Shown: positions 19,650 through 20,855 of the stretch, piece by piece
Numbering within the stretch: position 1 is the first letter of the stretch
Layout: every line of letters starts with the position of its first letter
Source of the DNA: Escherichia phage Lambda
Length of the DNA: 48,502 nt
Sequence record: NC_001416.1
Strand: one strand, 5' to 3'
Made by a program: the position numbers and the translations under genes
Notes under the pieces: model-generated
Databases searched by the model: none
What the model was told of the DNA's origin: nothing
The model's input: the letters and a program-made list of their open reading frames with translations, nothing else

Positions 19650-20855
19650 ATGGCAGTAAAGATTTCAGGAGTCCTGAAAGACGGCACAGGAAAACCGGTA
19701 CAGAACTGCACCATTCAGCTGAAAGCCAGACGTAACAGCACCACGGTGGTGGTGAACACGGTGGGCTCAGAGAATCCGGATGAAGCCGGGCGTTACAGCA
19801 TGGATGTGGAGTACGGTCAGTACAGTGTCATCCTGCAGGTTGACGGTTTTCCACCATCGCACGCCGGGACCATCACCGTGTATGAAGATTCACAACCGGG
19901 GACGCTGAATGATTTTCTCTGTGCCATGACGGAGGATGATGCCCGGCCGGAGGTGCTGCGTCGTCTTGAACTGATGGTGGAAGAGGTGGCGCGTAACGCG
20001 TCCGTGGTGGCACAGAGTACGGCAGACGCGAAGAAATCAGCCGGCGATGCCAGTGCATCAGCTGCTCAGGTCGCGGCCCTTGTGACTGATGCAACTGACT
20101 CAGCACGCGCCGCCAGCACGTCCGCCGGACAGGCTGCATCGTCAGCTCAGGAAGCGTCCTCCGGCGCAGAAGCGGCATCAGCAAAGGCCACTGAAGCGGA
20201 AAAAAGTGCCGCAGCCGCAGAGTCCTCAAAAAACGCGGCGGCCACCAGTGCCGGTGCGGCGAAAACGTCAGAAACGAATGCTGCAGCGTCACAACAATCA
20301 GCCGCCACGTCTGCCTCCACCGCGGCCACGAAAGCGTCAGAGGCCGCCACTTCAGCACGAGATGCGGTGGCCTCAAAAGAGGCAGCAAAATCATCAGAAA
20401 CGAACGCATCATCAAGTGCCGGTCGTGCAGCTTCCTCGGCAACGGCGGCAGAAAATTCTGCCAGGGCGGCAAAAACGTCCGAGACGAATGCCAGGTCATC
20501 TGAAACAGCAGCGGAACGGAGCGCCTCTGCCGCGGCAGACGCAAAAACAGCGGCGGCGGGGAGTGCGTCAACGGCATCCACGAAGGCGACAGAGGCTGCG
20601 GGAAGTGCGGTATCAGCATCGCAGAGCAAAAGTGCGGCAGAAGCGGCGGCAATACGTGCAAAAAATTCGGCAAAACGTGCAGAAGATATAGCTTCAGCTG
20701 TCGCGCTTGAGGATGCGGACACAACGAGAAAGGGGATAGTGCAGCTCAGCAGTGCAACCAACAGCACGTCTGAAACGCTTGCTGCAACGCCAAAGGCGGT
20801 TAAGGTGGTAATGGATGAAACGAACAGAAAAGCCCACTGGACAGTCCGGCACTGA
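19650..20855 (+). CDS. stf: Side tail fibre, N-terminal part (orf-401); truncated by frameshift in this strain
   Basis: ORF track 19644..20855; ATG at 19650; Ala/Ser-rich low-complexity body. Confidence 0.88.

Follow-up and report, generated by a model that had tools for sequence, protein, structure and literature searches.

Two long open reading frames, orf-401 and orf-314, follow one another in the 48,502-bp stretch of DNA that we analysed (hereafter the window), and both resemble tail-fibre genes. The question is whether they are two genes or the two pieces of one, stf, that has been broken. The ends of the window, GGGCGGCGACCTCGCGGG... at the start and ...ACAGGTTACG at the end, we take to be the cos ends of phage lambda. 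In a search of phage records, positions 20500-21300 proved 100% identical to several entries named 'Escherichia phage Lambda'. We conclude that the window is almost certainly laboratory (PaPa-type) lambda, whose stf carries a fixed loss-of-function frameshift, CCCC to CCC, at positions 20833-20835.

Reading frames and the missing C

The features on which the argument turns are the following.

19650..20855, plus strand: orf-401, the 5' part of stf (ATG 19650, TGA 20853-20855, 401 aa)
20819..20855, plus strand: stretch of 37 nt in which both frames are open
20833..20835, plus strand: the lesion, CCC in place of the CCCC of intact stf alleles (a deletion of 1 bp, which could have taken any C of the run)
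20834..21973, plus strand: 3' part of stf, read in the -1 frame: residues Pro396-Ala774 and the TAA stop
21029..21973, plus strand: orf-314 as annotated, starting at the internal Met461 of Stf
21973..22557, plus strand: tfa (orf-194), chaperone for tail fibre assembly that partners Stf (phrog_105 'tail fiber assembly', E = 1.5e-99)

A first-pass annotation, made from the letters of the window, had described the layout correctly in each of its coordinates: orf-401 (19650-20855) stops at TGA 20853-20855, the frame of orf-314 is open from 20819, after TGA 20816-20818, through 21973 (with TAA at 21971-21973), and the two overlap at 20819-20855. A Shine-Dalgarno-like GGGGTG lies upstream of ATG 19650. 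Codons 1-395 of orf-401 are authentic Stf, followed by six out-of-frame codons, HWTVRH (20835-20852), and the stop. Since the initial Met of orf-314 is residue 461 of Stf, residues 396-460 (20834-21028) fall within neither annotated ORF. The same annotation had pointed to a tail-fibre-like translation upstream of ATG 21029, and the second frame indeed translates as it was written there. Taken by themselves, these 70 codons have 81% identity (E = 5e-35) to the phage P88 tail fibre; thus, the open stretch upstream of ATG 21029 is not a product of chance. At the other end of the locus, the tfa ATG overlaps the stf stop codon (TAATG), and both the EMG2 and the KT232076 entry name the tfa product tail fiber assembly protein.

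That a 1-bp change would fuse the frames into a protein of about 775 aa was also borne out, the fused ORF being 774 aa long from ATG 19650. In silico, a one-base insertion anywhere after positions 20816-20854 creates a single uninterrupted ORF. Alignment with intact stf genes, the check recommended at the outset, shows that the base they have in addition belongs to the C run at 20833-20835: CCC is found in the window and HK630, and CCCC in KT232076, lambda imm21, LC730321, and the EMG2 prophage. This is the sole difference at the junction between the window and the CCCC alleles. Megablast of phage records returned 17 near-identical lambdas, three of which (KT232076 from K-12 CV601, lambda imm21, and LC730321) are one base longer over the same 801 nt. 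The HK630 record carries the note 'missing C (relative to sequence of Ur-lambda) causes frameshift mutation and disruption of stf'.

The intact alleles contain a continuous ORF, 774 aa long when counted from the ATG and 776 when counted from a GTG upstream, and the prophage stf of EMG2, an early K-12 lysogen, is annotated as one CDS (WP_001407643.1). When one C was added to the window in silico, the resulting 774-aa ORF differed from EMG2 Stf only by K338E and S689N, and the repaired junction read ...DETNRKA(395)-P(396)LDSPALTG.... The initial statement that laboratory lambda has a frameshifted stf therefore stands, as intact alleles with exactly one extra C at the junction encode a single 774-aa protein.

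Other features of the region deserve mention in their own right. The five other lambda records compared agree on G (Glu) at 20661, where the window has A (Lys338), and at 21714 the window has G (Ser689) against A (Asn) in EMG2, KT232076, and LC730321. Both missense differences sit within an already dead gene; the A at 20661 extends an A run to A6 (20660-20665). Lambda imm21 (OM418625.1) has kept CCCC but lacks a T about 155 nt into stf, at position 1807 of the stretch compared from that record, which equals window 19805, and the record annotates a pseudogene there. Unless it is a sequencing error, this second 1-bp deletion seems to have inactivated stf independently in a further laboratory lineage. 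Long ORFs also occur at window 19873-20767, antisense to stf (283 and 206 aa, minus strand) or in another plus frame (200 aa). They lie within the Ala/Ser-rich repeats and are probably not genes but a consequence of the repetitive, GCN/TCN-rich composition there.

Continuity of the fibre across the junction

The first-pass annotation would have been contradicted by related phages with two separate genes at this place. Instead, phage P88 and Citrobacter phage Shae_phiSM (both P2-like myophages) and Yersinia phage vB_YpM_41 each have a single tail-fibre CDS that spans the junction. Their genes share ~79% nucleotide identity with the window over ~20724-21216, an interval that includes the junction, and the proteins of these diverged homologues are 75-76% identical over the aligned segment. 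In the alignment, orf-401 tracks the homologues to ...NRKA and diverges at HWTVRH*, and the second frame resumes at PLDSP.

Profile and structure matches run across the two frames in the same manner. Positions 1-395 of phrog_8713 are matched by orf-401 and positions 393-482 by the second frame, so that the matches abut; phrog_7032 is likewise collinear (positions 154-251, then 248-395), and phrog_295 too is matched collinearly by both pieces. Tail fibre S of phage Mu (5YVQ) aligns to Stf 350-409 and gp4 of 9D93 to Stf 380-482, in each case as one chain across residue 395/396.

The Pfam domains of Stf begin with PF08400 at residues 1-134 (E = 2.7e-75), followed by an Ala/Ser-rich region that is taken to be a coiled shaft. 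The Phage_fiber_2 repeat PF03406 occupies residues 358-396, the PF07484 Collar residues 533-580 of intact Stf, and a PF03335 Phage_fiber match also falls in the C-terminal half. Residues 1-94 match the collar chains 9E7M/9MGH, which were deposited with the Ur-lambda structure paper, where residues 1-94 form the collar domain (PMC12617516). At the distal end, Stf 518-774 matches the receptor-binding tip of T4 gp37 (2XGF, E = 1.2e-72). The domain order of a prophage-type side tail fibre (PF08400, fibre repeats, collar, gp37-like tip) is thus present and collinear across the two frames, and with this layout the frameshift uncouples the tail-attachment module from the receptor-binding module.

Could orf-401 and orf-314 nevertheless be separate genes for two fibre subunits, the fused versions found elsewhere being derived? 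Both are long, each has tail-fibre Pfam domains of its own, and older annotations enter them separately. Against this, ATG 21029 has no Shine-Dalgarno sequence: within the 21 nt upstream of it no anti-Shine-Dalgarno pairing was found, compared with -6.0 kcal/mol for stf and -5.6 kcal/mol for tfa. Moreover, the 65 residues 396-460, conserved in fibres, lie upstream of that ATG and outside both ORFs, the last six residues of orf-401 (HWTVRH) have no counterpart in homologues, and, among the phage records and the E. coli matches listed, the split is confined to laboratory-derived lambdas, with one carrier, BH212, recorded as human. We rejected orf-314 as an independent gene on the grounds of the absent Shine-Dalgarno sequence and of homology that runs 65 residues upstream of its start, and we give the two-gene reading practically no credence. 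As no Shine-Dalgarno sequence is detectable at ATG 21029, the orf-314 start is most likely an annotation convention rather than a real gene start. The two ORFs should be annotated as a single pseudogene, stf, and not as two genes.

A separate observation concerns the wider relationships of the junction segment. The ~490 bp at window ~20724-21216 also have ~79% DNA identity to the tail-fibre genes of the P2-like myophage P884B11 and of Yersinia phages vB_YpM_39/41/44, with unrelated flanks. Because the N- and C-terminal parts of the P2-like and Yersinia fibres are unlike those of lambda Stf, the genes are mosaic. Judged from these alignments, the segment looks like a mosaic tail-fibre module that has been exchanged between siphoviruses and myoviruses.

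Distribution of the two alleles

We searched 5,426 complete E. coli genomes with a 63-nt junction query. The junction was present in 97 of them, 21 with the exact CCC allele and 76 that differ. Among the CCC carriers listed (13 of 21), 12 are BL21/DE3-type or derived laboratory strains. The remaining one, E. coli BH212 (NZ_CP029239.1), is an isolate whose source is recorded as Homo sapiens and which carries the laboratory CCC allele. Among the matches listed for the other class (47 of 76), all extend over 64 nt against the 63-nt query, 46 with 98.4% identity, which fits an extra C alone, and one with 96.9%; 37 of the 97 genomes (8 CCC, 29 of the other class) stand outside these listed matches. 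The longer allele occurs in the original K-12 lysogens EMG2 and NCM3722, in J53, CV601, and several cattle or farm isolates, and also in WG1. A single origin of the deletion, within the laboratory lineage, would produce this pattern.

In the phage records, the laboratory CCC allele is found in 4W, E26-Berryhill, OR974322, PV340536, imm434, HK629/HK630, DE3, and DN1. Such a distribution bears on the simplest objection, namely that the C run was miscounted in the record and that no mutation exists. Homopolymer miscounts are a common type of error. However, the same CCC allele recurs in independently sequenced laboratory lambdas and their derivatives and in the 21 complete E. coli genomes, whereas CCCC follows a different lineage, that of the original K-12 lysogens; the phenotype, in addition, has been confirmed in the literature. 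With so many independent records of the CCC allele, we rejected sequencing error, whose chance of being correct we regard as vanishingly small. The split of stf in the window is a real lesion, yet one already known, the lambda PaPa stf frameshift of Hendrix & Duda 1992.

Several of the records have peculiarities of their own. HK629 and HK630 (JQ086376.1), recorded as Hong Kong isolates, have the same C deletion and are 99.9% identical over the region, which suggests, as far as sequence similarity can tell, that they share ancestry or have recombined with the laboratory lambda lineage. An entry named 'Campylobacter phage CJLB-4' (MW057783.1, 48,361 bp, host Campylobacter jejuni) shows 100% identity to the window throughout 20500-21300, as if lambda DNA had been deposited under another name. 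In DE3 prophages (BL21(DE3), NC_012971.2; 1501-2655 of the stretch compared), similarity to the window ends at ~21231. The distal part of DE3 stf is thus missing in addition to the frameshift, and the 5' part up to the frameshift is annotated as an incomplete pseudogene.

Recoding, consequences and known systems

An overlap of two frames in a tail gene may also be a site of programmed -1 ribosomal frameshifting, as in lambda G/GT. On that reading, some ribosomes would shift within the 37-nt overlap and complete a full-length Stf. The shift needed is indeed -1, and the overlap holds A-AAA-G (20828-20832), where, in principle, tRNA-Lys could slip back by one base and pair again. Yet this is all that the overlap offers: a search of 20816-20855 for a slippery heptamer X XXY YYZ in the zero frame found none, and folding of 20833-20930 revealed no significant stimulatory structure downstream, the minimum free energy being unremarkable relative to mononucleotide shuffles (z = -0.6 to -1.3). 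Without heptamer and significant downstream structure, programmed recoding is unlikely, and we rejected it as a candidate on both counts. Furthermore, the two-frame layout is not conserved, since all close intact alleles and all diverged relatives compared are in a single frame, and laboratory lambda is reported to be without side fibres and to adsorb 10-30x more slowly (PMC12617516). The resemblance to G/GT thus extends to overlapping frames in the tail-gene region and to their -1 relation. In contrast, G/GT has a conserved slippery heptamer and a two-frame layout kept across phages, and stf has neither. Taken together, we consider programmed frameshifting at stf extremely improbable.

A weaker variant, low-level -1 slippage of tRNA-Lys at A-AAA-G (20828-20832), would yield traces of full-length Stf, and a few 'fibreless' virions would then bear a functional OmpC-binding fibre. 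We deem this very unlikely as well. If it were true, the Stf product would read ...NRK-S-PLDSP..., an Ala395Ser variant.

This brings us back to the fixed frameshift, against which nothing in the sequence speaks. The window contains a 1-bp deletion in a run of four Cs, an early termination, and a distal part of 379 residues that is not translated in frame. Replication slippage in the homopolymer run may have removed one C of CCCC, and the choice of a large-plaque variant, early in the phage's time as a laboratory strain, may have fixed the deletion. Ribosomes starting at ATG 19650 read 395 authentic codons and six wrong ones before stopping at TGA 20853. Owing to this premature stop, the distal 379 residues are not joined to the half that attaches to the virion, and they include the T4 gp37-like receptor-binding tip, which is reported to bind OmpC. 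The predicted outcome is a virion without its four side fibres that adsorbs more slowly and makes larger plaques; the fibre loss, the OmpC binding, and the plaque phenotype are taken from the literature.

Ur-lambda possesses four trimeric OmpC-binding side fibres and adsorbs 10-30x faster (PMC12617516). According to PMC12617516 and PMC9997739, which cite Hendrix & Duda 1992, laboratory lambda (PaPa) is devoid of side fibres because of the stf frameshift. Slower adsorption on ompC+ cells and larger plaques of virions without side fibres are described, with the same attribution, in PMC12617516, PMC2762979, and PMC9997739; the three papers agree, each with reference to Hendrix & Duda 1992, that stf of laboratory lambda is frameshifted. 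Plaque-like growth disfavours high adsorption and repeatedly selected stf frameshifts (Gallet et al. 2009, PMC2762979). Of 21 isolates that had evolved low adsorption, 15 carried such frameshifts, with a hot spot at 21572/21573 (PMC2762979). In the window, a G5 run at 21568-21572, in the 3' part of stf, coincides with this indel hot spot (PMC2762979).

The stf split adds nothing scientifically new; it is a classic case of a 'wild-type' laboratory phage that is a domesticated mutant. As textbook knowledge since 1992, the lesion is ordinary. It does mean that the natural phage has faster adsorption kinetics than measurements on laboratory lambda indicate. An Stf+ phage is regained by putting one C back at 20833-20835, a change of use in the engineering of host range or adsorption and one that published work has in effect already made.

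Among known systems, the closest parallel for the distal fibre is T4 gp37 (2XGF) with its chaperone gp38: Stf has a gp37-like tip and the chaperone gene tfa downstream, and OmpC binding has been reported for both fibres (PMC12617516). The resemblance is limited to the distal tip; the proximal half of Stf (PF08400 and the Ala/Ser-rich region) joins a siphovirus tail, and in the window the lambda tip has been uncoupled from that half by the frameshift. The tail fibre genes of P2-like phages (P88, Shae_phiSM) and of Yersinia vB_YpM phages differ from stf of the window in being intact single CDSs. With the lambda PaPa stf frameshift (Hendrix & Duda, Science 258:1145, 1992), finally, the lesion in the window is the same thing. 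The two agree in the 48,502-bp length, the presumed cos ends, the ORF coordinates, and the missing C described in the HK630 note. An intact 774-aa counterpart allele exists in the original K-12 lysogens (PMC9997739), and stf of NC_001416 is described as frameshifted into orf-401 and orf-314 but intact in WG1/EMG2 (PMC9997739). There is no difference of substance between PaPa stf and the window, in which, besides the deletion, two missense changes distinguish stf from the EMG2 allele.
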